From a virus, in the IMG/VR virus record IMGVR_UViG_3300025818_000017: DNA of 64,000 nt; one strand, given 5' to 3'. Under the pieces are notes generated by a model. The model saw only the letters and a list, made by a program, of their open reading frames with translations, was not told the DNA's origin and did not search any database. Shown here in pieces: positions 1-54,021 of the stretch; the stretch's first letter is position 1, and the number at the start of each line of letters is the position of its first letter. The translations under genes and the position numbers were made by a program.

Positions 1-48
1 GTAAAAGCCGCACTTACTGGTGCCGCCCCCGCCGCATTCGCTGGTGCT

Positions 49-1545
49 ATGACTAATCCAAGTGATATGCTTTCTTCTCTCGCAAGCCACGCAACAACAT
101 ACTTACCCGGTGATATGAGTTCTGCTATCCAGATTGCTCAACAAGCATTGTCGTTTAGTGAAGCAAGTATTGATATGATGCCTAATCTTACACGAGCATT
201 AAATACAGGCTTTGGGGAGATTGCTGGAACACTTACTGACTTTACGGACGGTGGGTTTCTTGGAGAAGCATTTAATAACTTTAACGATGTGATTTCTAAC
301 GGTCTGGGTAGTCTTACTGATGGTATAGGTGGTTCTCTAACTGAACTTGGTTCATCTTTCGCTAGTTTGGGTAAGTTTGGTGATATGGCTGATATTGGTA
401 ATCTAATGAAACCTGGTCAAATAGCTTCGCAACTATTATCAAATGATTTAGGTGATATTGGTGGCTTTGCTAATAAGTTACTTGAGAACGGCATTCCTTT
501 AGATGATTTAACCAACGGTATATATCAAGATAAAATCCAAGGCATTATGAACGGTATGACTAATGTACAGGACTTGATTGATATCAAACAGGTTATGGGG
601 TCAAGCATCAATCTAAACTCATTAGGTGATGTAACAAACTTCCAAAATGTTCTTGGTTCTGCGGTTGGTAAATCCTTTAGTGACTTTGGTGAAATGGCTG
701 AAAAGTTCACTTCCATAGAAGTAGGAAAGTTGGCTAATGTGGGCGAGCTTGGTGAAATGATGAGCGAAATGGTTGATTCGACTGACCTGAACTATGTTAT
801 GGCTGAAACAGGTTTCTTATCACAAGCTAACTTTGATGTTCTTTCTGGTATCTACGGTAATGGTTCTGGTCCAGATGGTTCTGTTCTTATGCGTGATATG
901 TTGGGAACAAGTGCTGGTTACGGACACGAAGTTTTCCTTGATAGTTATAAGCAAGGAATGGATATACTGGACAGTGATGGTACAACAGGCACACTTGCTA
1001 CAATGTATGATGAACTAACCGCTGGTCTAAATGGTGATTACTTGGATGTTCCTGGAGATTTTGGTGGTAGTGTTGATATTACAGACCCACGTTCAGGTAG
1101 TGTATTCACAGAAATGGAAGCATTTGTTACAGCAAAAACAGCACAAATCAGTAGCGAACTAAATGGTATTGTCAATAGTGTATCTACGAATACACAAGAA
1201 CTACTAACAGTTGTTGGTAATAACTGGAATACAAGCGCGGCACAGTTGGATAAAGAAGTATCAAACTTGAGTTTGTCTGATGTTGATGTAAGTCTTGTTA
1301 CTGCTGGGCACAAAGGAAGCATTCTTTCATTTGCCCAGCAACTAAACCAATACGGAGCAGATGTTAAAAATAAAGGTGAGTTTTTTGCGAAGACAGCACA
1401 AAATAACCTTACTGGTGATTTCCTAAAACTAGCATTGCGCGAAGGACAAAATAGAGCATTACTAAACGCTAATGATGTGAAATATACTGCCGCCTTGGTA
1501 GACGAAGAAGAAGATATTGAGCCATTTGACACTAGTGTTGGATAA
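49..1545 (+). CDS. hypothetical, probably virion structural protein (5' end probably outside window)
   Basis: 498-aa G/S/D-rich ORF; the frame is open back to base 1. Confidence 0.5.
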   Translation: MTNPSDMLSSLASHATTYLPGDMSSAIQIAQQALSFSEASIDMMPNLTRALNTGFGEIAGTLTDFTDGGFLGEAFNNFNDVISNGLGSLTDGIGGSLTELGSSFASLGKFGDMADIGNLMKPGQIASQLLSNDLGDIGGFANKLLENGIPLDDLTNGIYQDKIQGIMNGMTNVQDLIDIKQVMGSSINLNSLGDVTNFQNVLGSAVGKSFSDFGEMAEKFTSIEVGKLANVGELGEMMSEMVDSTDLNYVMAETGFLSQANFDVLSGIYGNGSGPDGSVLMRDMLGTSAGYGHEVFLDSYKQGMDILDSDGTTGTLATMYDELTAGLNGDYLDVPGDFGGSVDITDPRSGSVFTEMEAFVTAKTAQISSELNGIVNSVSTNTQELLTVVGNNWNTSAAQLDKEVSNLSLSDVDVSLVTAGHKGSILSFAQQLNQYGADVKNKGEFFAKTAQNNLTGDFLKLALREGQNRALLNANDVKYTAALVDEEEDIEPFDTSVG

Positions 1546-1632
1546 TATATAGACATATTCTTTTTCATGAACCAATAAATAATAGTAGATATTATTCAAT
1601 AATATCACTAACAAATAAGCGCAGAGGCGATA

Positions 1633-1890
1633 GTGATGAGTGAAAGAAGAGGCCACAGTAGAAGGCAACCCGATAGTTCACAAGAGAACCATACGGATTT
1701 GTATTCACTGCTTGCAAGGATTGATGAGAGAACTCTAGACCTTGGCAAGAGGCTTGACCATTTAGATAAAAGATTAGAAGAATACATTACAAGGCACGAG
1801 TTTACGCCTGTAAAACTCATAGCATATGGGTTTTCGGGTATCGTGTTCACATCCGTTGTCGCTGCCCTAGTAGCAACGGTGTTGACATAA
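1633..1890 (+). CDS. small coiled-coil protein with C-terminal TM helix (holin/XhlA-like)
   Basis: LARIDERTLDLGKRLDHLDKRL coiled coil followed by hydrophobic LIAYGFSGIVFTSVVAALVATVL. Confidence 0.4.
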   Translation: MMSERRGHSRRQPDSSQENHTDLYSLLARIDERTLDLGKRLDHLDKRLEEYITRHEFTPVKLIAYGFSGIVFTSVVAALVATVLT

Positions 1891-2096
1891 TGTGTAGAAA
1901 AGTATCAGACGTAAATCTAAAATCCCCATCCCATATGTATGCTATAACATTAGTAGTCGGAACGTGGCTTGCCTGTTCTAGTATTGCTGGCGCATTTGCG
2001 GTAGATTATAATGGTATGCGAACATCTGTGACGCATATGATTTCCGAAAAAATATCAAAAAAACCTATTGACATGGACTACCACGACGATATATAA
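1890..2096 (+). CDS. small membrane protein
   Basis: ATG overlaps the upstream stop; one hydrophobic segment. Confidence 0.4.
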   Translation: MCRKVSDVNLKSPSHMYAITLVVGTWLACSSIAGAFAVDYNGMRTSVTHMISEKISKKPIDMDYHDDI

Positions 2097-2102
2097 TAAA
2101 TA

Positions 2103-2372
2103 CATTAGAACGTTGAAGCAAACTCAACGCTATACTGGACGGGGATGCAATTTCCCCCCGGTCCACAAAGCACATTTTGCGGAGTGTTCTTTGTGGGCCG
2201 GATATTTAGGATCGACAGGTAGTTAATAGGTAAGTGGAGTTCTCGGTAGGCGATGACCGTAAATCAAGCAAACACAATAAACGCAGCATCTAACGATAAT
2301 GCTATTGAGGATATCCGCCTAGCGGCATAATCTTCTTGGGTTCGGTGGGTTCCTAGAAACAGAATACCCACC
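2103..2372 (+). ncRNA. ssrA: circularly permuted (two-piece) tmRNA
   Basis: T-arm GGGGA-TGCAATT-TCCCC (2141-2157) and acceptor 3' strand CCGGTCC-A (2158-2165) lie upstream of acceptor 5' strand GGGCCGG (2195-2201); 7-bp stem with G3:U70 pair (G2197:T2162); GGATCGAC D-loop region; tag ORF; late promoter TAAATA at 2097-2102. Confidence 0.93.
2283..2330 (+). other. tmRNA tag reading frame AASNDNAIEDIRLAA*
   Basis: ATAAAC-GCA resume context, NDN motif, LAA-stop ending. Confidence 0.9.
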
Positions 2373-2381
2373 ATTTTATTA

Positions 2382-2410
2382 TTGACAAACTAAAGTAACT
2401 ATAGTATAAT
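2382..2410 (+). promoter_or_regulatory. sigma70-type early promoter (representative; similar sites near 2955, 6889, 7451, 13672, 18512, 19358, 54014, 54107 and others)
   Basis: TTGACA-17 nt-TATAAT. Confidence 0.8.
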
Positions 2411-2628
2411 GGTCTATGAAATACAGTAAAAACTCAAGTATAAAGGGAGTTGATACTATGTCGTAGATAAATACTTACAAGTCGTAAGACGGAATATATG
2501 ATATATTATGGGGCTGATCCCTACAGTCTATAGTTTAGGCAAAGTGTCCTAATCAAAGAGGTGTTTATTATAGTATATATGAAAGAATACATATACTAAA
2601 AATGTAGAGTTTCTAGTATATTTTAGTC

Positions 2629-2659
2629 AAAAGGGAGACTAAAAATAGTCTCCCTTTTT
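2629..2659 (+). terminator. intrinsic terminator
   Basis: AAAAGGGAGACTA-AAAA-TAGTCTCCCTTTTT. Confidence 0.85.
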
Positions 2660-2723
2660 ACTTGACTGATACCATATTATATGGTATAATCATCCATCAA
2701 CATTTATTACAGAGGAGTCCAAA

Positions 2724-2945
2724 ATGGCTAAAGGAAAAAAACCATCAGGTAAGACTTACGTATCAAAGGGTGAACGCCGCAATGTAGCAAAGTCAATTAC
2801 GAAGGCGATGAAGCGTGAGCGTACTGGTGGTGAAAAGATGATGTATGCTTTGGAAGCATATAAGAAGGGTTTCAAGGTCAAAAAGTTTGGTTTTGATAGC
2901 CTTCCAGAATATCGTTTCAACCGCTATGGCGGAACAAAAAAGTAA
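2724..2945 (+). CDS. small basic hypothetical protein
   Basis: GAGGAG RBS; K/R-rich, 73 aa. Confidence 0.7.
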   Translation: MAKGKKPSGKTYVSKGERRNVAKSITKAMKRERTGGEKMMYALEAYKKGFKVKKFGFDSLPEYRFNRYGGTKK

Positions 2946-2988
2946 AATAATATATTGACATATCACAGGAATGTGGTATAGTAAATAT

Positions 2989-3696
2989 ATGATGTACTCA
3001 CCAAAGAAAATAGTCTTGCTTCTTACAGCAAGCTTTGTAGTTGGAGCAGTATCCGCCAAAATGTTTTCGGAAAAGGCTACTGCTTCTATTCCCGATGACG
3101 CTCCTGTTATTGAAGCAGTTCCTATTGAGCGTGTATTGGAAGTAGGACCGTTAAAGGCTACTGCTTCTATTCCAGATAACGCTCCTGTTATTGAAGCAGT
3201 TCCCGTTCAACGTGTGTTTGAAATAGGACCGTTACCAGAACCGTTTCCTTGGGAAGAAACAAAGGGAACAATCCTTGATTGCGAACAGGAACGCCAGAGT
3301 GAGCGTATTGCTTTGGCTTGTAATATCTATCACGAAGCCCGTGGTGAAACTCTTAAAGGTCAAGTTGCCGTTGCTTTGGTGACTCGTAATCGTGTGAAAT
3401 CTGAAAAATACCCCGATAGCTATAGTGAAGTGGTTTGGGAAATCCGCCGTTCAGCCAAAACCAAACGCCGTGTAGCACAGTTCTCTTGGGCGTTGGATGG
3501 TAAGCATGATAGGATTTACGATATTCAATCATGGAGAACTGCTTGGGAAATCGCGGGTGATGTTATTGCTGGTAAGTATAAAGACTTTACCAATGGTTCT
3601 TTATGGTATCACGCCAAGAAGGTGAAACCAGTATGGCGTAAAAAGTTTGAGGTTGCTGCGGTTATTGGAGAACATATCTTTTATCGCAAAAAGTAA
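2989..3696 (+). CDS. sleB: cell wall hydrolase, SleB/CwlJ family
   Basis: NIYHEARGE, VAVALVTRNRV, QFSW, WYHA, IGEHIFY motifs; N-terminal TM. Confidence 0.9.
   Translation: MMYSPKKIVLLLTASFVVGAVSAKMFSEKATASIPDDAPVIEAVPIERVLEVGPLKATASIPDNAPVIEAVPVQRVFEIGPLPEPFPWEETKGTILDCEQERQSERIALACNIYHEARGETLKGQVAVALVTRNRVKSEKYPDSYSEVVWEIRRSAKTKRRVAQFSWALDGKHDRIYDIQSWRTAWEIAGDVIAGKYKDFTNGSLWYHAKKVKPVWRKKFEVAAVIGEHIFYRKK
3073..3234 (+). repeat. 81-bp (27-aa) tandem duplication in the SleB linker
   Basis: KATASIPDDAPVIEAVPIERVLEVGPL / KATASIPDNAPVIEAVPVQRVFEIGPL. Confidence 0.95.
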
Positions 3697-3702
3697 TAAA
3701 TA
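3697..3702 (+). promoter_or_regulatory. late promoter TAAATA (representative; also 2097, 7478, 10183, 13704, 28956, 58331, 59561, 62025 and minus-strand copies)
   Basis: recurrent ATAAATA just upstream of structural/late genes, resembling the T4 late promoter TATAAATA. Confidence 0.75.
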
Positions 3703-3707
3703 ACTTT

Positions 3708-4415
3708 ATGTTATTGAATGAACTTTTTAATAAAACGCAGACTTTCGTAGTTGAAGGCGGGAAAGTGTTCAAGGATGCAGATAAAAATCCGCTGACACAA
3801 CGTATTAATCGTGATGACGTAGAACCAACTGTTCGCTGGTTAGAAGATTTAACTGGTCTAAGTTTAGTTGACAATATGCTAGGCACCACTGGCAAAAAAG
3901 ACACAAGTGGCGATTTAGATTTAGCAGTTGATGAAAATGAAATAGATAAAGATACACTAGTAAAAATTCTTTTACAAAAAGGTGTTGATAAAACAGACAT
4001 CAAGAAGAGTGGCGACAATGTGCATTATAAGACGCCAATAAATGGTGAACCAGTCAATGGATATGTACAAACCGATTTTATGTTTGGTAATCCACAGTGG
4101 CAAAAGTTTAGTATGCAAGGCAGTGGTGAAGAAAGTAAGTTCAAAGGTGTTCATAGACACATTCTTCTATCAAGCATTGCGAAAACTATGGGATATAAGT
4201 GGAGTTACAAGAACGGTCTTGTTGACAGAGAAACCAATGCTGTTCTTGATGGCGGCAAAAACCCCGTAATAATTAGCAAGACTTTAGGTATTCCTATTCA
4301 GAATCTAAATGATGTTGATGGTATTATCACGGCTATAAAAGACCGACCAAATTATCAAGAGTTAGTAGCAGACGCCAGAGAAACTTTTGCAAGAGACAAT
4401 CTGGAACTGCCATGA
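3708..4415 (+). CDS. Pol-beta-superfamily nucleotidyltransferase-like protein
   Basis: LGTTGKKDTSGDLDLAVD (G[ST]...DxD) and later QTDF. Confidence 0.7.
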   Translation: MLLNELFNKTQTFVVEGGKVFKDADKNPLTQRINRDDVEPTVRWLEDLTGLSLVDNMLGTTGKKDTSGDLDLAVDENEIDKDTLVKILLQKGVDKTDIKKSGDNVHYKTPINGEPVNGYVQTDFMFGNPQWQKFSMQGSGEESKFKGVHRHILLSSIAKTMGYKWSYKNGLVDRETNAVLDGGKNPVIISKTLGIPIQNLNDVDGIITAIKDRPNYQELVADARETFARDNLELP

Positions 4416-5557
4416 GATTTTTTGAATTCGCCAATCCACTCGTAGAGGATGAACTACTTATGGAAGCTGCCCGTATCCAACACGCAGAAGATGTTGTTTT
4501 TTGGGAAGGAAGTAAGGGTGCAATAAGAGCATTGCATAGTTTGAGAAATATGGACAAAGGCTCCCATAAAGATACTACTATAAAGTGGGATGGTAGTCCT
4601 GCTGTTATTTTCGGGCGTGATGAAGAAGGTAACTTTATCTTCACTGATAAATCAGGTTTTACCGCAAAAGGTTATGATGGTAAGGCAAAGAGTGCAGAAC
4701 ATCTAGAAAAAATGCTAACGAGCCGCCCCGGTTTCGCCAAAAATCCAAAAGGGTATGGTCCATTTATTGCTGCAATGAAATCTGCCTACAATAGTTTTGA
4801 AAGAGCAGTTCCGTTGGATTACCGTGGATTCTTCAAAGGAGACATGCTTTATTTCACTACACCGAAAGTAAAGAATGGCGAATACGTTTTCACTCCAAAC
4901 ATCGTAACGTATAGCGTTGACGTAGACAGTGAGCTAGGAAACAAAATAGGTAAAAGTGTAGCTGGTGTAGTTATTCATAGACAAGTTGGGCCAGATGGAA
5001 CAGAAAGTCCATTGGATGGATATGACATATTCCAAGGCGAAGAAGTTTTGGTTGTCCCACCGGTTACCGTTGAAAAGGAACCATTTGTTCCACATGATAG
5101 CTTGAATATATTAGAGAAGATTATTAAGAAAGATGCGGCGGCGATTGATACAATGCTTGACACTGATACGTTACGTGCTTTGAAGATAACTGATTTCCCC
5201 CAAGTCTTGTATGCCTATACCAATAGTAAAGTCGATACAGGTCTTACCGAAATGGGCAAGGATTTTGGTGCGTGGCTAAAGAACTCGAAACTAAGTGAAC
5301 GAAAGAAACAAAATATCGCCCAATACATTTCCGAAAATAGTGCTGGATGGAAAGCATTATGGGAAGTTGTCGGTGGCATTATGAAAGCAAAAGACGAAAT
5401 AATCTATGATATCGATTCACAAGGTAGTACTGTCAAACAAAGCATTGCTGGACAAGGCGGCGGCGAAGGTTATGTCTTAGCCCATCCAGAAGGCGATATA
5501 AAACTAGTCCCGCGAGAATACTTCTCAAAAGCAAACCGTGCAGCAAGGATGACATAA
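4412..5557 (+). CDS. ligase-fold protein with KxDG motif (DUF6267-like)
   Basis: TTIKWDGSPAVIFG, FKGDMLY, GGEGYV, IKLVPR resemble ligase motifs I, III, IV and V. Confidence 0.65.
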   Translation: MRFFEFANPLVEDELLMEAARIQHAEDVVFWEGSKGAIRALHSLRNMDKGSHKDTTIKWDGSPAVIFGRDEEGNFIFTDKSGFTAKGYDGKAKSAEHLEKMLTSRPGFAKNPKGYGPFIAAMKSAYNSFERAVPLDYRGFFKGDMLYFTTPKVKNGEYVFTPNIVTYSVDVDSELGNKIGKSVAGVVIHRQVGPDGTESPLDGYDIFQGEEVLVVPPVTVEKEPFVPHDSLNILEKIIKKDAAAIDTMLDTDTLRALKITDFPQVLYAYTNSKVDTGLTEMGKDFGAWLKNSKLSERKKQNIAQYISENSAGWKALWEVVGGIMKAKDEIIYDIDSQGSTVKQSIAGQGGGEGYVLAHPEGDIKLVPREYFSKANRAARMT

Positions 5558-5558
5558 A

Positions 5559-6197
5559 ATGAGCGACATTTCATACTTACGCAAACTAATGGATGCGGTT
5601 GAAAACCCGTCAAAGATTATTGCTATCTATCCTGGTCGCTTTCATCCTTTCCACAAGGGACACGCAAGCGTATATGATTTCCTCGTTCAAAACTATGGCG
5701 ATGCTTATATCGCAACATCAGCAAAGGTAGACCCACCAAAATCCCCATTCACATTTGACGAAAAGAAAATGATGATGGAGTTTTCTGGTGTCCCAGCCGA
5801 TAAAATCGTTCAGTGCCGCCAACCATATGTTCCAGTAGAAATCTTACAAAACTTTGATGAAACTGTTGATAAGGTTGTATTTGCTGTATCACAGAAGGAT
5901 ATGGACGAAGACCCACGTTTCCAGTTCAAGCCAAAGCGTGATGGTTCAGCACCATATTTCCAGCCTTGGACTGACGATGAAAGTATGCAACCGTTCAGTA
6001 AGCACGGTTATATTCGTGTAGCACCTACACTGGACTTTGATGTATTGGGTGAGCCAATGCGTTCCGCTACACAGTTGAGGGCACAGTTCGCCCAAGCAGA
6101 TGGCGACACACAAAAAGCAATCATTGAAGACCTTTATGGTTCTTATGACGAAACCATCCATAAGATTATGTATATCAAACTAAAAGGAATGAGATAA
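5559..6197 (+). CDS. HIGH-motif cytidylyl/adenylyltransferase-like protein
   Basis: IAIYPGRFHPFHKGH; RSATQLR. Confidence 0.8.
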   Translation: MSDISYLRKLMDAVENPSKIIAIYPGRFHPFHKGHASVYDFLVQNYGDAYIATSAKVDPPKSPFTFDEKKMMMEFSGVPADKIVQCRQPYVPVEILQNFDETVDKVVFAVSQKDMDEDPRFQFKPKRDGSAPYFQPWTDDESMQPFSKHGYIRVAPTLDFDVLGEPMRSATQLRAQFAQADGDTQKAIIEDLYGSYDETIHKIMYIKLKGMR

Positions 6198-6892
6198 TGA
6201 GACTTCACGAAATCACCGAAGGCATCCTTGATCCAGATCAAGAGTTTATGCAGCGTTTCACATACGCTGTTGAGGACGCCGCACGTGAATACGCAGAGTT
6301 TCTAAAAGACAATAACGACCAAGACGATCCAGAAGAACTTGCTTCTATCCTTGAAACATTCTTTGAGGAAGAAGACCTACCCATTACCGTTCATGTTGGT
6401 GAGTCTGGACGAAATGCTGTTGATTGGTATATCCAAGCCGCACAAGTCACAGGTAGTGGCGAAATGGACCTGATACTTGACCCTGATAGTATTGATGGGC
6501 ATTGGGGTCCAGAAACATTCATTGATGTGATGACGAAAACATTTGAGCATGAAACAATCCATCTACAACAGCGTGATCGTATGGGTGCAGACAAATATAA
6601 CAAACTACCATCTGGCTATATGAAAGGTCTAAAGAAGGCAGAAAAAACAGGTAAAGAGCGTGACCTTATGAGAACCTATTTCCGTGACCCACAAGAGTTG
6701 ATGGCACACGGACACGACATTTACCGTGAAGTTATCAAACTTTCTGATCCAGAAGCGGTATTACGAAACCCCGAAAAACACCGTGAAGACCTACCAACAT
6801 ACGACAAACACCGCCAAATCTTCCCACCAAACGCCAAACCTTTACAGCGTATGATGAAATACGCCTATCAATATTTCCAAAAAAACGCTTGA
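6197..6892 (+). CDS. hypothetical protein with HExxH (zincin-like) motif
   Basis: FEHETIHLQQ. Confidence 0.5.
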   Translation: MRLHEITEGILDPDQEFMQRFTYAVEDAAREYAEFLKDNNDQDDPEELASILETFFEEEDLPITVHVGESGRNAVDWYIQAAQVTGSGEMDLILDPDSIDGHWGPETFIDVMTKTFEHETIHLQQRDRMGADKYNKLPSGYMKGLKKAEKTGKERDLMRTYFRDPQELMAHGHDIYREVIKLSDPEAVLRNPEKHREDLPTYDKHRQIFPPNAKPLQRMMKYAYQYFQKNA

Positions 6893-6925
6893 CATAATCA
6901 TAATCTGTGCTATACTGTATACAGA

Positions 6926-7225
6926 TTGATGGAGATATCTATGTGGAATGAACCCCCCAACAGCTTTACTTTCTGTGACGAGAATGCTTCCCCCGAAGAT
7001 GTGGAACTGTTTCTTGGTCCTGATCCCGAAGAAAAAACCACCTTCATTCGTTTTGGTGAAGACTTCACGATGGCTGATGTAGCCGTCGCCACGGGCAAGT
7101 TCCCGTCCAAATCACAGGCTCGTAAGAATGGTTGGGATGGTGATATCCCCACTGGTTTCACTGAAAAAACTCTTGGTAAGAACGCCAAGAAGGTTCACAT
7201 CTGGATTTTCAAGAAGTTCGACTAA
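6926..7225 (+). CDS. small protein with S4-like RNA-binding motif (TyrRS C-terminal-like)
   Basis: MADVAVATGKFPSKSQARK. Confidence 0.5.
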   Translation: MMEISMWNEPPNSFTFCDENASPEDVELFLGPDPEEKTTFIRFGEDFTMADVAVATGKFPSKSQARKNGWDGDIPTGFTEKTLGKNAKKVHIWIFKKFD

Positions 7226-7464
7226 TGCCACTTGACCTTCACGGATATCACACCCACGATGGCTGGAAACGCTTTATGGATGAAGTGGATGATGCCTATG
7301 ATCGTGGTGTAAAATCATTCAAAGTGATCACTGGCAAAGGTCAGATGCGTGTAGAGTTTCGCATTTGGGCAGAGAACCATTCTAAAGTGCGTAAAGTTGA
7401 ACTGAACAAAGATGGCGGAAGTTTCAAAGTAACATTACGCAAAAAACCACTTGACAAATCCTAA
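7225..7464 (+). CDS. stand-alone Smr domain endonuclease
   Basis: LDLHG and VITGKG motifs. Confidence 0.9.
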   Translation: MPLDLHGYHTHDGWKRFMDEVDDAYDRGVKSFKVITGKGQMRVEFRIWAENHSKVRKVELNKDGGSFKVTLRKKPLDKS

Positions 7465-7501
7465 ATCTGTGCTATGATAAATACATAGTCAGGAGAAAAC
7501 A

Positions 7502-7702
7502 ATGATTGAAGTCAAAGTAAAGAATGTTGTCAACGAAGCCACTGGTGAAGTGGAAGAAGTTATCGTCAATGAAGAAGAAGTTGCCGCTTACCTTGCTGAA
7601 TCCGAAAAGGGCATTGAGGAAGCGGAAGTTATTGCTCCTGAGAACTTCTTAGAACATACCCGTAGCCGCATCGCAGAGCGCCGTAAGCAACTTGGAAAAT
7701 AA
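7502..7702 (+). CDS. small acidic hypothetical protein
   Basis: AGGAG RBS, early and late promoters upstream. Confidence 0.65.
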   Translation: MIEVKVKNVVNEATGEVEEVIVNEEEVAAYLAESEKGIEEAEVIAPENFLEHTRSRIAERRKQLGK

Positions 7703-8239
7703 ATGCGTTTATGGGAGTTCATAACAGAAACGAGCAGAGGCATTACTGGCATCAAAGAGACTGATGGTTACATCGATTCTTTGATTGATATCATAGACAA
7801 ACATCCCGCCGCTGAAAAAATCATTGAAGATGCAATGAAGAAGTTCATTGCGGTAAAGACTCGTGATTCACAGGAACCTTACAACAATAAGGATTACGGT
7901 CACCAAGGCGTACTGAAAGGTTATAAACACGTTCATCTTCTAAAAAGTAATAAAATAAGCAATGGTACGAACCCTGTGGTTTTGTATTATCGCATTGAGG
8001 CTGGTATTCTTATTTTGGTTCATATACAGTTTCATATCAACGCCGCCAATAGAAGTAGTGAAGATAAGCGTTTAGTCAAAAAACTACGCAGAGCAGAACA
8101 GAACGATACATCTATGGTAATGCCAGTAGATGACCCAACTGAAAAGAAGAAAACACAAGGCGACTATAATCAACAAAAGAAAGACGATTATAAAGACCAG
8201 CAATGGTACAAAGATCAACAAGAGTTCTATAACCACTAA
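7703..8239 (+). CDS. RelE/YafQ-like mRNA interferase domain protein
   Basis: DYGHQGVLKGYKHVHL...VLYYRI...LILVHI..H pattern. Confidence 0.55.
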   Translation: MRLWEFITETSRGITGIKETDGYIDSLIDIIDKHPAAEKIIEDAMKKFIAVKTRDSQEPYNNKDYGHQGVLKGYKHVHLLKSNKISNGTNPVVLYYRIEAGILILVHIQFHINAANRSSEDKRLVKKLRRAEQNDTSMVMPVDDPTEKKKTQGDYNQQKKDDYKDQQWYKDQQEFYNH

Positions 8240-11827: not shown

Positions 11828-12191
11828 ACTTATCATAGTTTCTTCTCCTACGTACTATCACGGCAATGTACCAAGTCTTATGCTTTATGATATAGAACCC
11901 GATGATATGAAGATCATTATGGAGATTCTACTTGATTCGGATATCGTTATGAGTGTTCATTTGGGGTATTCCGATAAATCAGAGCGCGAATGGTTGTTAA
12001 ATACTAGTAGACAGGTTGACAGAACGATTGTTAATCTTCAAAAACATGATTTGATTAAAGGATTTATATTGAATTACCCCACTGTTTCGTATTATAATAA
12101 TACACACGATATAGAGTCGTTGAATATGAACCAACTAACTGATCCCATCGATTACATACTGAGGTTTGTGCATGAGCAAAGAGACGAATGA
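11811..12191 (+). CDS. hypothetical protein
   Basis: coupled ORF in operon. Confidence 0.55.
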   Translation: MYSDNKLIIVSSPTYYHGNVPSLMLYDIEPDDMKIIMEILLDSDIVMSVHLGYSDKSEREWLLNTSRQVDRTIVNLQKHDLIKGFILNYPTVSYYNNTHDIESLNMNQLTDPIDYILRFVHEQRDE

Positions 12192-13431
12192 AAAGAACTT
12201 AAACTGCGACTTTTGTGGAAAGAACCGCAACGAGGTCGATAAGCTTATTGTGGGCAACGATACAAGCATTTGTAATGAGTGTGTTGATCTATGTCATGAC
12301 ATTCTTGAGAACGATAGGTTTACCAAACTAAAGAAAAACCTAATCAACAAAGACTATCTAAATCCCATCAAAATCAAAGAACACCTAGACAAATATGTTA
12401 TTTCACAAGATAAAGCAAAGATTGCTTTATCCGTTGCCGTAGCAAATCATTTCAAGCGTATTAATCATCCCCCCAAAGACCTAAAGATTGAGAAGTCAAA
12501 TATCATGATTGCTGGTCCTACTGGTAACGGTAAGACTATGCTTGCCCGTGCAATCGCGGAATATCTAGAGGTTCCATTTGTTATCGCTGACGCCACTACT
12601 CTTACAGAGGCTGGTTATGTAGGCGATGATGTAGAAAGCATTATTTCCCGTTTGCTACACGTTGCTGATTACGATGTGGAGAAAGCACAGAACGGTATTA
12701 TCTTCATTGACGAGATTGATAAGATTGCCCGTAAAAGTGAGAATGTATCTATTACCCGTGATGTATCTGGTGAAGGCGTACAGCAAGCCCTATTAAAACT
12801 AGTAGAAGGCACGGATTGTCGTGTAGCACCACAAGGTGGGCGTAAGCACCCATCACAAGAGTTGATCAATGTCAACACAGAAAACATCCTATTCATTGCG
12901 TCTGGCGCATTCGTGGGACTTGATAAGATTATTGAGAAACGCAAAACACCAGGTAGTATCGGCTTCGGTGCAACTATTTCTGAAAAAGAAAAAGACACAC
13001 TAGAAATGTTGAATGATATTGAACCTCACGATTTCGTGAGTTTCGGTCTTATCCCTGAGTTCACTGGTCGTTTCCCTGTATTCACTCATGTTGAGAAACT
13101 TGATGCGGCTGATTTGGTTCATATTATGACTGATACTAAGAACTGTATTATTGACCAGTATAAGTATTATTTCACCTTACAGGACATTGAGTTGGAGTTC
13201 AGCAAGGAAGCGTTAGTGGCTATTGCTGATAAAGCGGTTACATTAGAAACTGGTGCCCGTGGTCTAAAGAGCATCATTGAGGATGTATTATTGCCACATC
13301 AGTTTCATATGTATGATTACGCCAAGGATGGTGTAAAAAAACTTATTGTAGATGAGGCTACAATCGAGTATAATGATAAGATAAAGTTTGTTTATGAAGA
13401 GGTATCAAATGGCAAAACAGAAAGAGTTTAA
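12172..13431 (+). CDS. clpX: ATP-dependent Clp protease ATP-binding subunit ClpX
   Basis: C4 zinc domain, [23 protein letters not shown] loop, GARGL. Confidence 0.98.
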
Positions 13432-13675
13432 CGGCTCAACTATTACAATCAAGTATCCCCCGAATCCTACTGACGAACAGAAGGCAAGGGCGTTCAACAA
13501 CGGTTTGCGTAAGTTCAAGAAGATGGTTCAGACTGAGGGTATCATCCAGGAATATCGTGAACGTGAGTTTTATGAGAAACCAACTACTCGTCGCCGAAGA
13601 GAAAAGTCGATGGCTCGTAAGCGTTGGCTAAAGCGCCAGCGTGAACTAGAGAACGAGCGTTGGGGTAATACTTGA
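13409..13675 (+). CDS. rpsU: ribosomal protein bS21 with N-terminal extension
   Basis: LRKFKKMVQTEGIIQEYREREFYEKPTTRRRREK. Confidence 0.92.
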   Translation: MAKQKEFNGSTITIKYPPNPTDEQKARAFNNGLRKFKKMVQTEGIIQEYREREFYEKPTTRRRREKSMARKRWLKRQRELENERWGNT

Positions 13676-13712: not shown

Positions 13713-13806
13713 GTGAGGATATGCCATAAGGGTGTCCTCACCTTACTACCCGCAGATGCCGAATGGTTCGGGTCTGCATTACATAACTTGCTTAGATATA
13801 AGGAGT
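13713..13806 (+). promoter_or_regulatory. structured hsp20 leader with ROSE-like RNA thermometer
   Basis: two upstream hairpins, then ACTTGCTT pairing with AAGGAGT (SD) with a bulged G. Confidence 0.65.
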
Positions 13807-13812
13807 AAAGCA

Positions 13813-14241
13813 ATGAAAACATTAACACATCGTGATTTTCCACAACTCGTCGGCTTTGACCGTCTATTCAATGAACTAGATCGTTTGACTACAGCATCTT
13901 CTGGTTCATCCGCAGGGTATCCCCCATACAACGTAATCAGTGAGAGTGACAACGATTATATCGTAGAGATTGCTGTTGCTGGTTTCAGCGAGGATGCTTT
14001 GAGCATTGAAGAGCATGACGGAACATTGACTATTCGTGGTATTCCAGCAGAAGGTGAAGAAGATCGTAAGTACGTTCATAAAGGTATTTCTAACCGTAAG
14101 TTTGAGCGTTCATTTACATTGGCTGACCACGTTCATGTCGAAGGTGCATCTGTTGAGAACGGACTTCTGACCATTAAGTTGATTCGTGAAGTCCCAGAGG
14201 AACTACAACCTCGTAAGATTGCTATTGAATATAAGAAGTAA
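13813..14241 (+). CDS. ibpA: small heat shock protein Hsp20 (IbpA-like)
   Basis: GFDRLF, YPPYN, EIAVAGF, F.RSFTLA, NGLL.I.L, PRKIAI. Confidence 0.97.
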   Translation: MKTLTHRDFPQLVGFDRLFNELDRLTTASSGSSAGYPPYNVISESDNDYIVEIAVAGFSEDALSIEEHDGTLTIRGIPAEGEEDRKYVHKGISNRKFERSFTLADHVHVEGASVENGLLTIKLIREVPEELQPRKIAIEYKK

Positions 14242-15983: not shown

Positions 15984-16286
15984 ATGACTGATACTGATAT
16001 TGCTGAAAAAGTAAAGACTAATACCCGACTAAAAGAACCATCAATGTTCAATGTTATCTATCTAAACGACGAACAGACAACGATGCAGTTTGTCGTTGAT
16101 ACACTTATTCGTCATTTTGATTATGATGATTCAAGTGCTATGGAAAAGATGGCTGAAATCCATGATGAAGGTGCTGGTGTTGTTGCTACACTACCATATG
16201 AAATGGCTGAACAGAAAGGTGTAGAAGTAACGATTGAAGCACGAAATCTTGGTTTCCCGTTACAGGTAAAGGTGGAACCAGCGTAA
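15984..16286 (+). CDS. clpS: Clp protease adaptor ClpS
   Basis: LKEPSMFNVIYLNDEQTTMQFV...IHDEG...EMAEQK...GFPL. Confidence 0.97.
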   Translation: MTDTDIAEKVKTNTRLKEPSMFNVIYLNDEQTTMQFVVDTLIRHFDYDDSSAMEKMAEIHDEGAGVVATLPYEMAEQKGVEVTIEARNLGFPLQVKVEPA

Positions 16287-16810: not shown

Positions 16811-17299
16811 GGAAAATGTGGCCCAAGACGCACATACTGAACGGACTTGGCGAACAGCAAGTCAATCATGCACAGTATTATGCTTTGCGAATGGCAGAAG
16901 AAATGGATAAAGCTGAAAGAAAACTACGCGAAACAAACGATAGACTAAATGATGATGAACGTCTGGCGGATGATATTATCAAAGAGCAGATAATAAAGAA
17001 AAAGCTAGAGGTAGCAGAACATTGGTTAGTTCCATTGACAACCTATGTAGAACAAGCACGAGAAAACTTGGATTATATTGAGCCAGAAGATAACCCGATT
17101 ATGAAGGAACGTGGAGAATGAGAAATACAGTCTTTGATCTATTTTTATATCTCTATGTAGTATTCGCTTCAATTACTATGGCGGGTTTGATCGGTGCTTG
17201 GGCAACAGTAGGTATACAGGATACTAAACTATGGTTTGTGATCCCATTACTGGTTAGTGCAGCCTTTGCTGCTAAAATGATGACACAGCGAGAACAGAA

Positions 17300-17656
17300 A
17301 TGAAAATTATTTTTGGAAGAGAAAACGCAGAAAAGTTCAAAGACAACTATATCGTTCTTGAACTGGACACATTCAATGTGACCAATGTTGGTGAGGTAGT
17401 AACCTTTTGTGTATTATCCGCAGAAGAAATCCCGCTTGGTATGTTACCAGAACTACCACACTGGACAGAGTTTCATAATAAACTATTGAATGGTTATAGA
17501 ACCAAGCAATGGAACTTTTGCCTTGACTGTATCTCAAACCTAAAGGGAAAACTTGGTGGCGAGATTGATACATTCTATGATAATCTAAAACAGCGTATTG
17601 AAGTATATAGGGACACTGGCGTTCCCGACGATTGGACACATATACTCCAACGATAA
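17300..17656 (+). CDS. hypothetical protein
   Basis: coupled ORF with phage-like codon use. Confidence 0.55.
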   Translation: MKIIFGRENAEKFKDNYIVLELDTFNVTNVGEVVTFCVLSAEEIPLGMLPELPHWTEFHNKLLNGYRTKQWNFCLDCISNLKGKLGGEIDTFYDNLKQRIEVYRDTGVPDDWTHILQR

Positions 17657-18995: not shown

Positions 18996-19408
18996 AGTGT
19001 TTATTGTTGAAGTAATGCGTGATGGTGTCGTTTCACGCGAAGGTGTGTATGCTTCGGTTGAAAAAGCCAACGCGGTACAGAAACGGCTTGAAGAATGCCG
19101 TGATGCATCTGGCGAACCGTTTTACGATTTCGTCTTCAACCAAGAGGCGATTGTAAACTGATGACTGATAAGCCAGAAATCTACCCGTATATTACGATTG
19201 AGCGGTCTTCTGTTGATCCCGAAGGATGGGGTGGCGATGTTCGTTATTACAAAACGATTGGCCACGCTCGTTCTGTAAAGGAAACGATTGAAGAAGCTTA
19301 CCGTGATTCGGATGGCGAAACCGTGGATATTCGTATCTACAAACTTGAAGAAATCACTTGACAATCCACCAAAATATGTTATACTGTATATAACAGTTGG
19401 AGAGATTT

Positions 19409-19852
19409 ATGACCGATACATTCCCCGTTCTTTACATCCTGATGCGTAATGACCTTGCCAGCATGAACGCTGGTAAGGCGATGGCACAGGCTTCCCACGC
19501 TTCTAACGCTTTTGTTGATCAAATGTCACAAGAAGAAGATAAGTTTGAAGGATATTCTACCAACCCTGACGACGATGCCGACTTGAAGCTGTTTTGGAAA
19601 TGGCGTACAGAGACTGAACAGGGTTTCGGCACTGTTTTGGTTCTGGCTGTGAACGAAGCACAGATGCGTACCGCAGTTGAAGTTGCTGGTGCGATGGGGT
19701 TTGTTTCTGGCGTTGTTCACGATCCAACCTACCCGTTGCGTGATGGCGACACGACACACTTCTTGCCGGTTGACACCTGTTCGTTCATCTTTGGCGACAA
19801 AAACGATCCAATGCTTGGCGCTGTTGTTGGCAACTTCCCACTGCATCCATAA
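19409..19852 (+). CDS. peptidyl-tRNA hydrolase type 2 (Pth2)
   Basis: YILMRNDL.MNAGKAMAQASHA, W...Q....VL, VHD, T. Confidence 0.85.
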   Translation: MTDTFPVLYILMRNDLASMNAGKAMAQASHASNAFVDQMSQEEDKFEGYSTNPDDDADLKLFWKWRTETEQGFGTVLVLAVNEAQMRTAVEVAGAMGFVSGVVHDPTYPLRDGDTTHFLPVDTCSFIFGDKNDPMLGAVVGNFPLHP

Positions 19853-27838: not shown

Positions 27839-28927
27839 TTGAGAATTGCGTTTATCGGTGTTGGGAAACTTGGACTTCCCTGTGCGGAAGAGATTGCTAA
27901 AAAAGGTCATACTGTTACTGGTTATGATATTTCTGGTTTTGAATCAGGACTTGTAGAAAAGAAAGATTCTATCAAAGACCTCATTCATTATGGTTATCAA
28001 GATGATAACTGCCCAGACATTGTATTTATTGCTGTTCCAACACCGCACGAAAAAGAATATGACGGACGTTACCCGACGGCGCATTTAGAACCAAAAGACT
28101 TTGACTATTCTATCGTAAAAGAAGTTCTAACCGAAGTAGAAAGATATGCCAACAATACGACACTGGTTGTATTGATTTCAACCGTTCTGCCCGGCACAGT
28201 TCGTAGAGAGTTTATTGATCTGATGCCACGAATGAAACATCGTTTCGTCTATAATCCATATCTTATTGCTATGGGTACTGTGGGTTGGGATATGATCAAT
28301 CCAGAAATGGTAATGATTGGTACAAAGGACGGTGATGAAACCACTGACGCAAAAGAACTGATCGACTTCTATAAGACGATTATGGAAAATGATCCACGCT
28401 ATATCGTTGGTACTTGGGACGAATGTGAATGTATCAAAATCTTCTATAATACATTCATTTCAACGAAAGTGTCGCTGGTGAACATGATTCAAGATGTTGC
28501 TGAACGACAAGGTAATATTGACGTTGATGTGGTTACAAAAGCCTTGGCGGATTCGACGCATCGCATTATGTCTCCTATGTATATGAAGGCTGGTATGGGC
28601 GATGGTGGAGCTTGTGTAAAACCTGATTTCAAAGTCACTGTAAATGATGAAGTAGTATCAATAAGCGATCTTTATGAAAAGTTTGATGAAAACGAATACT
28701 ATATTGTTGATTCTATGAACTGGTCAGGAACCAATACGGACCAAAAGAAAATAGCAGAAGTAACTAAACGAGAATATACGGGAAAACTATACACATTTAC
28801 TACAAGTAGCGGAAAGAGTATATCCGTAACAGAAGATCATCTTATCCCCATTGAGCGAGACAGAAAACGAATCATTATACCAGCAAAAGAAGTAAAAAAC
28901 ACAGATAAAATGTTTGTTTTTGGGTGA
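27839..28927 (+). CDS. ugd: UDP-glucose/GDP-mannose dehydrogenase N-terminal fragment fused to N-intein
   Basis: GVGKLG, IAVPTP, STV.PG, E.IK.F.N; ends GMGDGGA|CVKPD...TEDH...FG*. Confidence 0.95.
   Translation: MRIAFIGVGKLGLPCAEEIAKKGHTVTGYDISGFESGLVEKKDSIKDLIHYGYQDDNCPDIVFIAVPTPHEKEYDGRYPTAHLEPKDFDYSIVKEVLTEVERYANNTTLVVLISTVLPGTVRREFIDLMPRMKHRFVYNPYLIAMGTVGWDMINPEMVMIGTKDGDETTDAKELIDFYKTIMENDPRYIVGTWDECECIKIFYNTFISTKVSLVNMIQDVAERQGNIDVDVVTKALADSTHRIMSPMYMKAGMGDGGACVKPDFKVTVNDEVVSISDLYEKFDENEYYIVDSMNWSGTNTDQKKIAEVTKREYTGKLYTFTTSSGKSISVTEDHLIPIERDRKRIIIPAKEVKNTDKMFVFG
28613..28924 (+). mobile_element. split intein N-half (104 aa)
   Basis: block A Cys1 (CVKPDF), block B SVTEDH, then tandem stops TGA TAG. 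Confidence 0.92.
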
Positions 28928-52860: not shown

Positions 52861-54021
52861 ATGAAAATAAACGAAGTCACAGAACCCCGCAAAGTAGATA
52901 CTTCTTCAATCGTCACACCGGACTTGAAGGAAATCTTTCGTGCGTTTGAAGCGGCTGGCAAGAACATCAAGATTGCTGGTGGTGCTGTTCGTGACCTTCT
53001 GCTTGGCAAAGAACCAAAAGATATTGATCTTGCCACAGACGCAACCCCCGACGAAATGAAAGAAATCCTTGCTGGTTTCAGAACCATTGACACTGGCTTG
53101 GAACACGGTACAATCACTGTGCTTGGTCGTAACGAAGGGGAAGAGTTTGAAATCACTACATTGCGTATTGATGTCGCCACGGATGGCAGACACGCCGATG
53201 TAGAATGGACAACTGATTTCCGCCAAGATGCTGATCGCCGTGACCTGACATTCAACGCTATGTTCATGGACTTGGATGGAACACTACACGATTTCCACGG
53301 TGGAGAAAAAGACCTCTACAGTGGAACAGCCCGTTTCGTTGGTAATGCTCAAAATCGTATTGAAGAAGATTTCTTGCGTATTCTGCGTTTCTTCCGTTTC
53401 CAAGGGCGTATGAAGTTTCCTAAATGGGACCAAGAAACGCTACACACAATCAAGCGCACTGCTGATGGTCTAAAACAGATTAGCGGTGAACGTGTTGCTA
53501 TGGAAATGGAAAAGATTCTAAAAGGCAAGCACACCATTGACCTGTTGGAAAAGATGGATGAAACTGGTATCTTGGATATCATTGGTTTCAAGCCTAACTT
53601 GAAAAAGTTAGAACAAGTTAAGAAAGTTACGGATGATTTCGCAACTTTGCTTGCTGCTTCTGTTGGTTCAACCAAGAAGATTGAAGATATCAAAGCCCGT
53701 TGGAAACTGTCTAACACTATTACTGATAGTGCTACCTTTGTGCTGGATAATGCTGATGTTGGTAAAGATGAAACGACATTGAAAGTATTGGCAGCAAAAC
53801 CAAAGACAAAGATCAACGATGCTGCCCGTATCGCTTTGTTCAACGAAGACAAACCGTTGGCTAAAATGATTGTGAAATGGGAGCCACCCGTGTTTCCTAT
53901 CACGGGTAAAGACCTGATTGCCCGTGGTGTAAAGCCTGGGAAAGAAATGGGTATGATGCTTGCTGACTTGCGAAAAAAATGGGAAGATTCTGGTTTCCCT
54001 AATGATTTTTCTATTGACTAA
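52861..54021 (+). CDS. cca: CCA-adding tRNA nucleotidyltransferase
   Basis: GGAVRD, DIDLAT, EITTLR, RRDLTFNA, EDFLRILRFFRF, ERV. Confidence 0.95.
   Translation: MKINEVTEPRKVDTSSIVTPDLKEIFRAFEAAGKNIKIAGGAVRDLLLGKEPKDIDLATDATPDEMKEILAGFRTIDTGLEHGTITVLGRNEGEEFEITTLRIDVATDGRHADVEWTTDFRQDADRRDLTFNAMFMDLDGTLHDFHGGEKDLYSGTARFVGNAQNRIEEDFLRILRFFRFQGRMKFPKWDQETLHTIKRTADGLKQISGERVAMEMEKILKGKHTIDLLEKMDETGILDIIGFKPNLKKLEQVKKVTDDFATLLAASVGSTKKIEDIKARWKLSNTITDSATFVLDNADVGKDETTLKVLAAKPKTKINDAARIALFNEDKPLAKMIVKWEPPVFPITGKDLIARGVKPGKEMGMMLADLRKKWEDSGFPNDFSID

Follow-up and report, generated by a model that had tools for sequence, protein, structure and literature searches.

A circularly permuted, probably functional two-piece tmRNA gene in an uncultured large phage

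Results

Identification and anatomy of the gene

The DNA analyzed here (64 kb; hereinafter the window, meaning the entire stretch) is of phage origin: its genes lie nearly all on one strand and, by PHROGs matches, include those for an endolysin, tail and baseplate proteins, a nucleotidyltransferase and a DUF2828 protein, and one neighboring protein has distant homologs in T4-like cyanophages and in the Methylophilales phage Melnitz. At 2104-2378 on the plus strand, Rfam searches together with direct reading of the sequence identify a permuted (two-piece) tmRNA gene. The tmRNA_permuted family (RF04321) matches 2107-2330 over its full model (positions 1-213) with 93.4 bits against a cut-off of 47 (E 9e-17), and the beta_tmRNA family (RF01850), the top-ranked clan member for the window, matches 2054-2378 with 86.5 bits against a cut-off of 84 (E 1e-24). 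An earlier interpretation made from the letters alone (hereinafter the sequence-only reading) had proposed a phage-encoded, permuted two-piece tmRNA with a tag frame and had suggested Rfam or ARAGORN as checks. The RF04321 score, well above threshold, and the anatomy of the gene bear out the proposal; ARAGORN, however, called no tRNA or tmRNA anywhere in the 64-kb window, which counts against a functional tmRNA.

The permuted order is evident from the coordinates, the T arm and the acceptor 3′ strand (2141-2164) lying upstream of the acceptor 5′ strand (2195-2201), as had been claimed. The 5′ strand GGGCCGG (2195-2201, +) and the 3′ strand CCGGUCC (2158-2164, +) form the 7-bp acceptor stem of the sequence-only reading, from G2195:C2164 to G2201:C2158, in which G2197:U2162 corresponds to G3:U70; with A2165 as the discriminator A73, the determinants of alanine identity are present. 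The T arm (GGGGA / UGCAAUU / UCCCC, 2141-2157, +) contains the T-loop that had been read there. This loop departs from the tRNA consensus by a G at position 55 and an A:U closing pair, another point against a functional reading; the same UGCAAUU loop is found in five other viral sequences and in many Caulobacterales genomes.

The predicted acceptor piece (2104-2165, +), delineated from the Rfam alignment, direct reading and covariation, with inferred ends, carries the 5′ strands of helix P2 (2107-2111, 2120-2123, 2131-2133 and 2135-2137, +). The predicted coding piece (2195-2378, +), delineated from Rfam coverage and stem covariation, contains the D-loop-like GGAUCGAC, the P2 3′ strands (2216-2243, +), a hairpin (2244-2259, +) and, at its end, a terminator-like 3′ hairpin (2344-2372, +) followed by a U-rich tail. 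In the Rfam alignment, 2107-2111 pairs with 2239-2243 and 2131-2137 with 2216-2221, with compensatory changes in both helices; the sub-helix formed by 2120-2123 and 2230-2233 is weak, with pairs in 58% of cells, and helix P2b of the window copy contains two non-standard pairs, which also count against function. The P2 pairing, as modeled, would keep both mature RNAs together. A local hairpin at 2110-2129 that appears in the single-sequence fold is not conserved in relatives, and the Rfam P2 pairing was preferred to it.

The two pieces are separated by an intervening segment of 29 nt without an ORF (2166-2194, +). The sequence-only reading had this segment form a closing hairpin, and the minimum free energy fold agrees: the segment extends the acceptor helix, giving 13 continuous pairs (acceptor stem plus spacer base) and an inner stem, such that the acceptor stem is closed as a precursor hairpin. 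The T arm also appears in this fold, whose z-score for the whole RNA is -3.1.

Promoters and the adjacent transcription unit

A perfect sigma-70-type promoter (TTGACA-N18-TATAAT, 12/12 matches) is located at 2068-2097 (+), with a predicted start at about 2104. Its -10 hexamer is overlapped by a late-type motif, ATAAATA, of the T4-like TATAAATA class (2096-2102, +), with a predicted start at about 2108. Perfect TTGACA-N16-18-TATAAT sites number 10 in the window, against 0.12 expected by chance, and the family alignment shows conservation of the -35 element of the tmRNA promoter. For ATAAATA, 22 copies were counted on the plus strand and 5 on the minus strand. Intergenic DNA makes up only about 20% of the window but contains 19 of the 22 plus-strand copies; many are placed 5-40 nt ahead of a start codon, and several are followed by genes with PHROGs matches to tail or baseplate proteins. 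Moreover, none of the six family members departs from TAAATA, not even L007, whose sigma-70 promoter lies about 27 nt further upstream. Thus, the earlier claim of a late promoter directly upstream of the gene holds insofar as the ATAAATA element is real, but the upstream region is not exclusively late, the perfect sigma-70 promoter being the strongest signal. Judging from these motifs, the simplest reading is that the tmRNA would be expressed both early and late. Both predicted starts fall where the pairing of P2 begins, so that the 5′ end of the acceptor piece would require no trimming.

Directly after the tmRNA lies a candidate phage sRNA unit (2382-2662, +), which comprises a perfect sigma-70 promoter (2382-2410, +), an ATAAATA motif (2467-2473, +) and about 190 nt without a credible ORF, closed by a strong terminator (2632-2660, +) with compensatory changes in its stem. 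This stretch is about 95% identical to that of the closest relative (L001), with diverged flanks, and its fold has a z-score of -3.5; it matched no Rfam family. It is followed by a very basic 73-codon ORF (2724-2945, +) with a near-perfect promoter of its own (2662-2690), which is well conserved in the same relative.

The 3′ end of the acceptor piece and a CCA-type enzyme

Direct reading shows that discriminator A2165 is followed by CAA, that is, ACAA stands in place of ACCA, and the statement of the sequence-only reading that CCA is not encoded is correct; ACAA also occurs at this position in three further assemblies (L013-L015). Among the matches listed, ACCA is encoded in 56 of 61 unique viral homologs, and its lack in the window was counted against a functional reading. 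The exceptions, hence 3-5 of 61 among these matches, comprise ACAA in the window phage and in L011, ACAT in L035 and two partial matches of doubtful status, and the closest relative, L001, still encodes CCA. Nevertheless, tmRNA genes that do not encode CCA at this position have been reported (PMC11915505), and an encoded CCA is therefore not a strict requirement of the family. In both CCA-less lineages, that of the window and that of L011, both strands of the spacer base are remodeled such that they prolong the acceptor helix with perfect pairing, ACAAAG facing CUUUGU; from its sequence, this arrangement looks like an alternative processing design rather than damage.

A class II tRNA nucleotidyltransferase of the CCA-adding type is encoded at 52861-54021 (+), where the sequence-only reading had placed a CCA enzyme. 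The assignment draws on PHROGs, Pfam and NCBIfam: the best PHROGs match is phrog_2244, a CCA tRNA nucleotidyltransferase family (1.6e-57), the protein contains PF01743 (PolyA_pol) and the RNA-binding domain PF12627, and the best NCBIfam match, NF009814, scores 200 bits, below its cut-off of 290. This enzyme is a candidate that could add the missing CCA to the tmRNA. The implied connection between the missing CCA and the phage enzyme is nonetheless unsupported, and the enzyme is not tied to the CCA-less trait, because a related 155-kb record (L069) combines a permuted tmRNA with an encoded CCA, two CCA-type nucleotidyltransferases and a full ClpX (the ClpX and CCA-type genes of this record, G003, lie at 17246-17611, 119319-120527 and 127567-127935). 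Its combination of permuted tmRNA, ClpX and CCA-type enzymes equals the set in the window. Of five large viral records whose permuted tmRNAs encode CCA, it is the one with CCA-type enzymes; the remaining CCA-less contigs are fragmentary (1-15% complete).

The tag reading frame

The tag frame (GCA...GCA TAA, 2283-2330, +) starts at the resume codon GCA at 2283 and encodes AASNDNAIEDIRLAA followed by a stop; translation of this interval yields the frame that had been read earlier. In relatives, the peptide pattern is kept through synonymous and conservative changes, as in AANDNVAIEEYALAA of L001 and ASNDNFVPMAVAA of L007, which argues for a translated frame. Among the matches listed, the pattern is retained across about 53 viral homologs, with the consensus ANDNFAxEDYALAA; 45 of the 53 parsed viral tags end in LAA, as does the window tag, and three other viral tags end in RLAA. 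The window tag contains NDN and has an unusual AAS start and IR before LAA. By its sequence, it is an ordinary, mild variant of the viral consensus that keeps the predicted LAA degron for ClpX.

Relatives, synteny and covariation

The 598-aa protein encoded upstream has five sets of homologs in metagenome assemblies, with 45-78% identity, the closest relative, L001, showing 78% identity in this neighboring protein. Every related contig examined displays the same gene order, namely a PAAR gene, a gene of about 600 codons, two or three small ORFs and a gene-free gap, and in all five distinct related phage contigs this gap contains an Rfam match to the permuted tmRNA, syntenic with that of the window. 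The three further assemblies L013-L015 hold the same phage, with an identical tRNA-like domain.

Neither megablast with positions 1-8000 of the window nor blastn with the tmRNA found a match among 50,697 phage records, and tblastn with the upstream protein was likewise negative; in IMG/VR, an exact 32-nt string from the tRNA-like domain had 0 matches, and the upstream protein as query yielded no confirmed relative locus. On these searches, the window phage appears to be without a close DNA relative among sequenced phages.

Covariation was assessed in an alignment of six distinct sequences (the window and its relatives), with pairs counted on the Rfam-derived structure. In this alignment, 82.5% of cells are paired, compared with 40-49% when the partners are slid, double-sided changes are present in 24 of the 44 pairs, and none of 500 shuffles reached the observed values. 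The G3:U70 pair and the first two G:C pairs are invariant across the six sequences, whereas acceptor pairs 4-6 are compensated in every comparison, and covariation extends to P2, the T stem and the acceptor stem. ARAGORN calls a tmRNA in one of the six family members, L005; surveys based on ARAGORN thus undercount phage tmRNAs.

Two other features were observed in the related contigs. Three of these contain, a few kb downstream of the tmRNA, a GOLLD RNA (RF02032, 178-202 bits) with an embedded tRNA (Rfam; L005 16205-16666, L007 11784-12245, L008 11875-12336), and no GOLLD RNA was detected by Rfam in the 64-kb window. About 0.5 kb downstream of the tmRNA, a related phage contig encodes an 804-residue protein with NorB_cytochrome_c-like and COX1 (heme-copper oxidase) domains (L011 13983-16397; L012 4430-6844).

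Subtype and a phage-borne lineage

For all five relatives, Rfam ranks alpha_tmRNA first, with 50-141 bits, and beta_tmRNA matches none of them. In the Rfam alpha consensus, the T-loop reads GGCgGUA and the loop of the 3′ hairpin ACCuGGCAACAGAA; L002, L005 and L007 possess the T-loop GGCAGUA and score 80-141 bits on RF01849. The window copy deviates from the T-loop GGCRGUA that, with a best clan score, defines the RF01849 subtype, since its loop is UGCAAUU and beta outranks alpha, but its 3′ hairpin loop CCUAGAAACAGAA (2352-2364) matches the alpha consensus and its tag is of the ANDN type, as expected of alpha_tmRNA. The loop CYURGMAACAGAA of this hairpin is common to all six family sequences. 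In the beta_tmRNA alignment of the window, the terminal hairpin (20 model positions) is deleted and the margin over the cut-off is only 2.5 bits. Given the GGCAGUA T-loops of L002, L005 and L007 and the shared 3′ hairpin loop, the family is, on sequence features, of the alphaproteobacterial type; the beta ranking of the window copy probably stems from its diverged T-loop.

The pattern of the conserved 3′ hairpin occurs in at least 120 IMG/VR contigs, and nearly all of these align to a family HMM over the greater part of its length; 61 unique viral tRNA-like domains were parsed from the matches listed. Among these, the T-loop is GGCAGUA in 18, GGCGGUA in eight, UGCAAUU in six (including the window), UGCGAUU in five and 6-nt in several, and the spacer varies from 11 to 307 nt. 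The 6-nt T-loops (UUCGAU, UUCAAU and CUCAUU), in place of the usual 7 nt, occur in L001, L011, L022, L047, L060, L072 and L097.

On the family HMM, most viral copies score 80-157 bits against 17-78 bits for the sampled bacterial copies, and a FastTree tree, judged by topology alone, separates the bacterial copies from a single group that comprises the viral sequences, Melnitz and the window; the bacterial sample in both comparisons was selected by the UGCRAUU T-loop, consists mostly of Caulobacterales and is hence biased. When 185,579 species genomes were scanned for tmRNA contexts containing the UGCRAUU T-loop, about 44 of the 80 matches listed came from Caulobacterales, and BLAST of the window tmRNA against five bacterial genomes with this T-loop gave no match, the sequences being too divergent. 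A Caulobacterales host suggested by the T-loop was considered and rejected, given that the bacterial tmRNAs score far below the viral ones on the family HMM. The SsrA of phage Melnitz (MZ577097), by comparison, scores 133 bits (E 5e-42) on the HMM built from the window phage family. The host of Melnitz is a Methylophilales strain placed in the Gammaproteobacteria, not an alphaproteobacterium, and the phage nevertheless carries an alpha-type ssrA (PMC9004378).

The sequence-only reading had taken the permutation to point to the host class. This does not hold, because Melnitz, a member of the same lineage, has a non-alphaproteobacterial host, and beta_tmRNA is the top match for the window itself. 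Rather, the gene type appears, on the sequence comparisons, to reflect a phage-borne lineage and not the present host; an alphaproteobacterial host for the window phage is possible.

Proteostasis genes in the window

A full-length ClpX is encoded at 12166-13431 (+); it matches NF003745 with 550.6 bits against a cut-off of 359 and retains the zinc finger (two CxxC pairs) and the GYVG, RKH and IGF motifs. By its sequence, this phage ClpX could recognize the LAA-ended tag. Pfam and NCBIfam further identify an Smr domain (7225-7464), ribosomal protein bS21 (13388-13675), Hsp20 (13732-14241), ClpS (15984-16286) and Pth2 (19397-19852); all six of these genes, including clpX, are situated within 18 kb of the tmRNA. 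Neither SmpB nor ClpP was found among the approximately 60 window ORFs scanned. SmpB was likewise not found in five large viral records with permuted tmRNAs, one of them rated complete, and ClpP is present in one of the five; function of the tmRNA would thus depend on compatibility with the host SmpB.

Elsewhere in the window, a UDP-glucose dehydrogenase ORF (27839-28927, +) ends in an intein-splicing-like segment (PF14890, 31 bits, below the cut-off), and the ribonucleotide reductase genes of relatives are intein-split.

Discussion

Multiple lines of evidence, from family scores and covariation to synteny and the retained tag frame, suggest, with a probability of roughly 0.85, that 2104-2378 (+) is a functional circularly permuted ssrA gene of an uncultured large T4-like aquatic phage, belonging to a phage-borne lineage of alphaproteobacterial-type two-piece tmRNAs. 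Under this reading, a single precursor would be transcribed early from the sigma-70 promoter and probably late from the ATAAATA element. Host RNase P would cut 5′ of G2195, and the 3′ end would be cut or trimmed back to A2165, likely by an RNase Z/BN-type route as for the CCA-less tRNAs of phage T4, which are matured by host RNase BN/Z and a CCA-adding enzyme. CCA would then be added by the host or the phage nucleotidyltransferase, and alanyl-tRNA synthetase would charge the RNA by virtue of G3:U70 and A73. Host SmpB and EF-Tu would bring the charged RNA to ribosomes stalled on broken mRNAs, where translation would resume at the GCA at 2283, appending (A)AASNDNAIEDIRLAA, and the LAA end would direct the product to ClpXP, made up of host ClpP with either host or phage ClpX. 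The likely benefit to the phage would be that ribosome rescue is kept running after the shut-off of host transcription, amid mRNA cleavage.

An extension of this scheme would make the lack of CCA, together with a spacer that perfectly prolongs the acceptor helix, a deliberate design, arrived at independently by the window phage and L011, in which maturation through an RNase Z-type cut and the phage's own nucleotidyltransferase would render the tmRNA active only under phage control; together with ClpX, ClpS, Smr, Pth2 and bS21, it would constitute a largely self-sufficient module for rescue and degradation after host shut-off. We regard this extension as unlikely.

The sequence-only reading had gone further in another direction, with a tag of the phage's own that might alter which protease clears the rescued products. 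In its full form, this alternative holds that a specialized tag redirects the products to a different protease, for example exclusively to the phage ClpX, and that the permutation reveals an alphaproteobacterial host. The presence of both ClpX and ClpS in the phage and the AAS start and IR of the tag are compatible with the former part, and the alpha-like character of the gene (the alpha T-loop of its relatives, the 3′ hairpin loop and the NDN tag), along with the frequency of the UGCRAUU T-loop in Caulobacterales, with the latter. However, a mild variant of the consensus with the canonical LAA end, seen in 45 of the 53 parsed viral tags among the matches listed, with RLAA in three others, offers little ground for a change of protease. 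As for the host, the G+C content of the window phage is 38-43%, whereas that of Caulobacterales genomes is far higher. Furthermore, the nearest tmRNAs are viral and not bacterial, beta_tmRNA is ranked first by Rfam for the window copy, and the homologous Melnitz gene belongs to a phage of a non-alphaproteobacterial host (PMC9004378). We therefore consider the combined alternative rather improbable.

A different role is suggested by the tRNA-like-domain-only RNA of mycobacteriophage DS6A (PMC4131195, PMC11915505), a precedent for a decoy or inhibitor RNA whose tRNA-like domain would titrate the SmpB of the host or block its trans-translation. The missing CCA, the non-canonical T-loop, the silence of ARAGORN and the lack of a phage SmpB in the scanned window ORFs and the five large viral records would all fit such a role. 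A decoy, however, has no need of a tag frame, a resume context, an LAA end and a stop, all of which are kept across the family and about 53 viral homologs, and the invariance of G3:U70 and A73 speaks against it as well; we deem it very unlikely. That the gene is a decaying or neutral passenger acquired from the host or another phage, non-functional here and with the loss of CCA as its first lesion, is hardly probable: the rarity of the CCA-less state, the two P2b mismatches and the CCA still encoded in L001 would be in keeping with decay, but the sequence is identical in three further independent assemblies with all other elements intact, the spacer helix is remodeled on both strands (ACAAAG with CUUUGU) with the same arrangement in L011, and tmRNA genes do not always encode CCA (PMC11915505).

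With a functional tmRNA as the preferred reading, the contribution of the present analysis is a well-supported member, with its syntenic phage family, added to the known phage two-piece tmRNAs. Lists of phage tmRNAs date back to at least 2014 (PMC4131195), work on huge phages mentions them (PMC7162821), two-piece forms are known and common in aquatic T4-like phages, pelagimyophages included (Buchholz et al., 2022, PMC9004378), and 53 unique two-piece tmRNAs, mostly marine or aquatic, have been counted in sequenced phages (PMC9004378). The novelty of a two-piece tmRNA in a phage had thus been overrated, and the finding itself opens no new question. The loss of CCA with matching remodeling of the spacer in a few viral copies does, however, provide a tractable case for the processing of permuted tmRNA precursors. 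Moreover, the Rfam alpha and beta subtype labels prove unstable for viral copies and are unfit for host prediction.

Among known systems, the SsrA of Melnitz resembles the window gene in its permuted order, its TTGACA -35 element and the TATAAATA-type element directly upstream, as well as in the alpha-type tRNA-like domain, the conserved 3′ hairpin loop and a tag of the ANDN...ALAA type (ANDNYVPVDYALAA in Melnitz). The two differ in the T-loop (UGCAAUU in the window, GGCAGUA in Melnitz), in the spacer (29 nt against 145 nt), in the CCA, which is not encoded in the window, unlike in Melnitz, and in the genomic neighborhood; a further difference from tmRNAs of the Melnitz and pelagimyophage type is that Rfam detected no glutamine riboswitch in the window.

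The Caulobacter-type two-piece tmRNA of alphaproteobacteria (Keiler, Shapiro and Williams, 2000, as cited in PMC9004378), represented by RF01849, shares with the window gene its architecture, G3:U70, the loop consensus of the 3′ hairpin and a tag with NDN and a terminal AA, but the window gene is phage-encoded, and the sampled bacterial copies, at 17-78 bits, form a separate group in the tree. To the betaproteobacterial form (Sharkady and Williams, 2004, as cited in PMC9004378), represented by RF01850, the base of the spacer and the penultimate hairpin of the window align well. The last hairpin of that model, in contrast, is absent from the window, whose tag is of the alpha or viral ANDN type. 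The CCA-less tRNA genes of T4 provide a parallel of another kind, in that these, like the window gene, are tRNA-like genes of a T4-like phage that need endo- or exonucleolytic 3′ processing and CCA addition; here, however, the substrate would be the acceptor piece of a tmRNA, and the phage has a CCA-type enzyme of its own. Set beside these systems, the window locus has a short, empty spacer and an ordinary tag, and its CCA-less state and accompanying proteostasis genes are modest points of interest.
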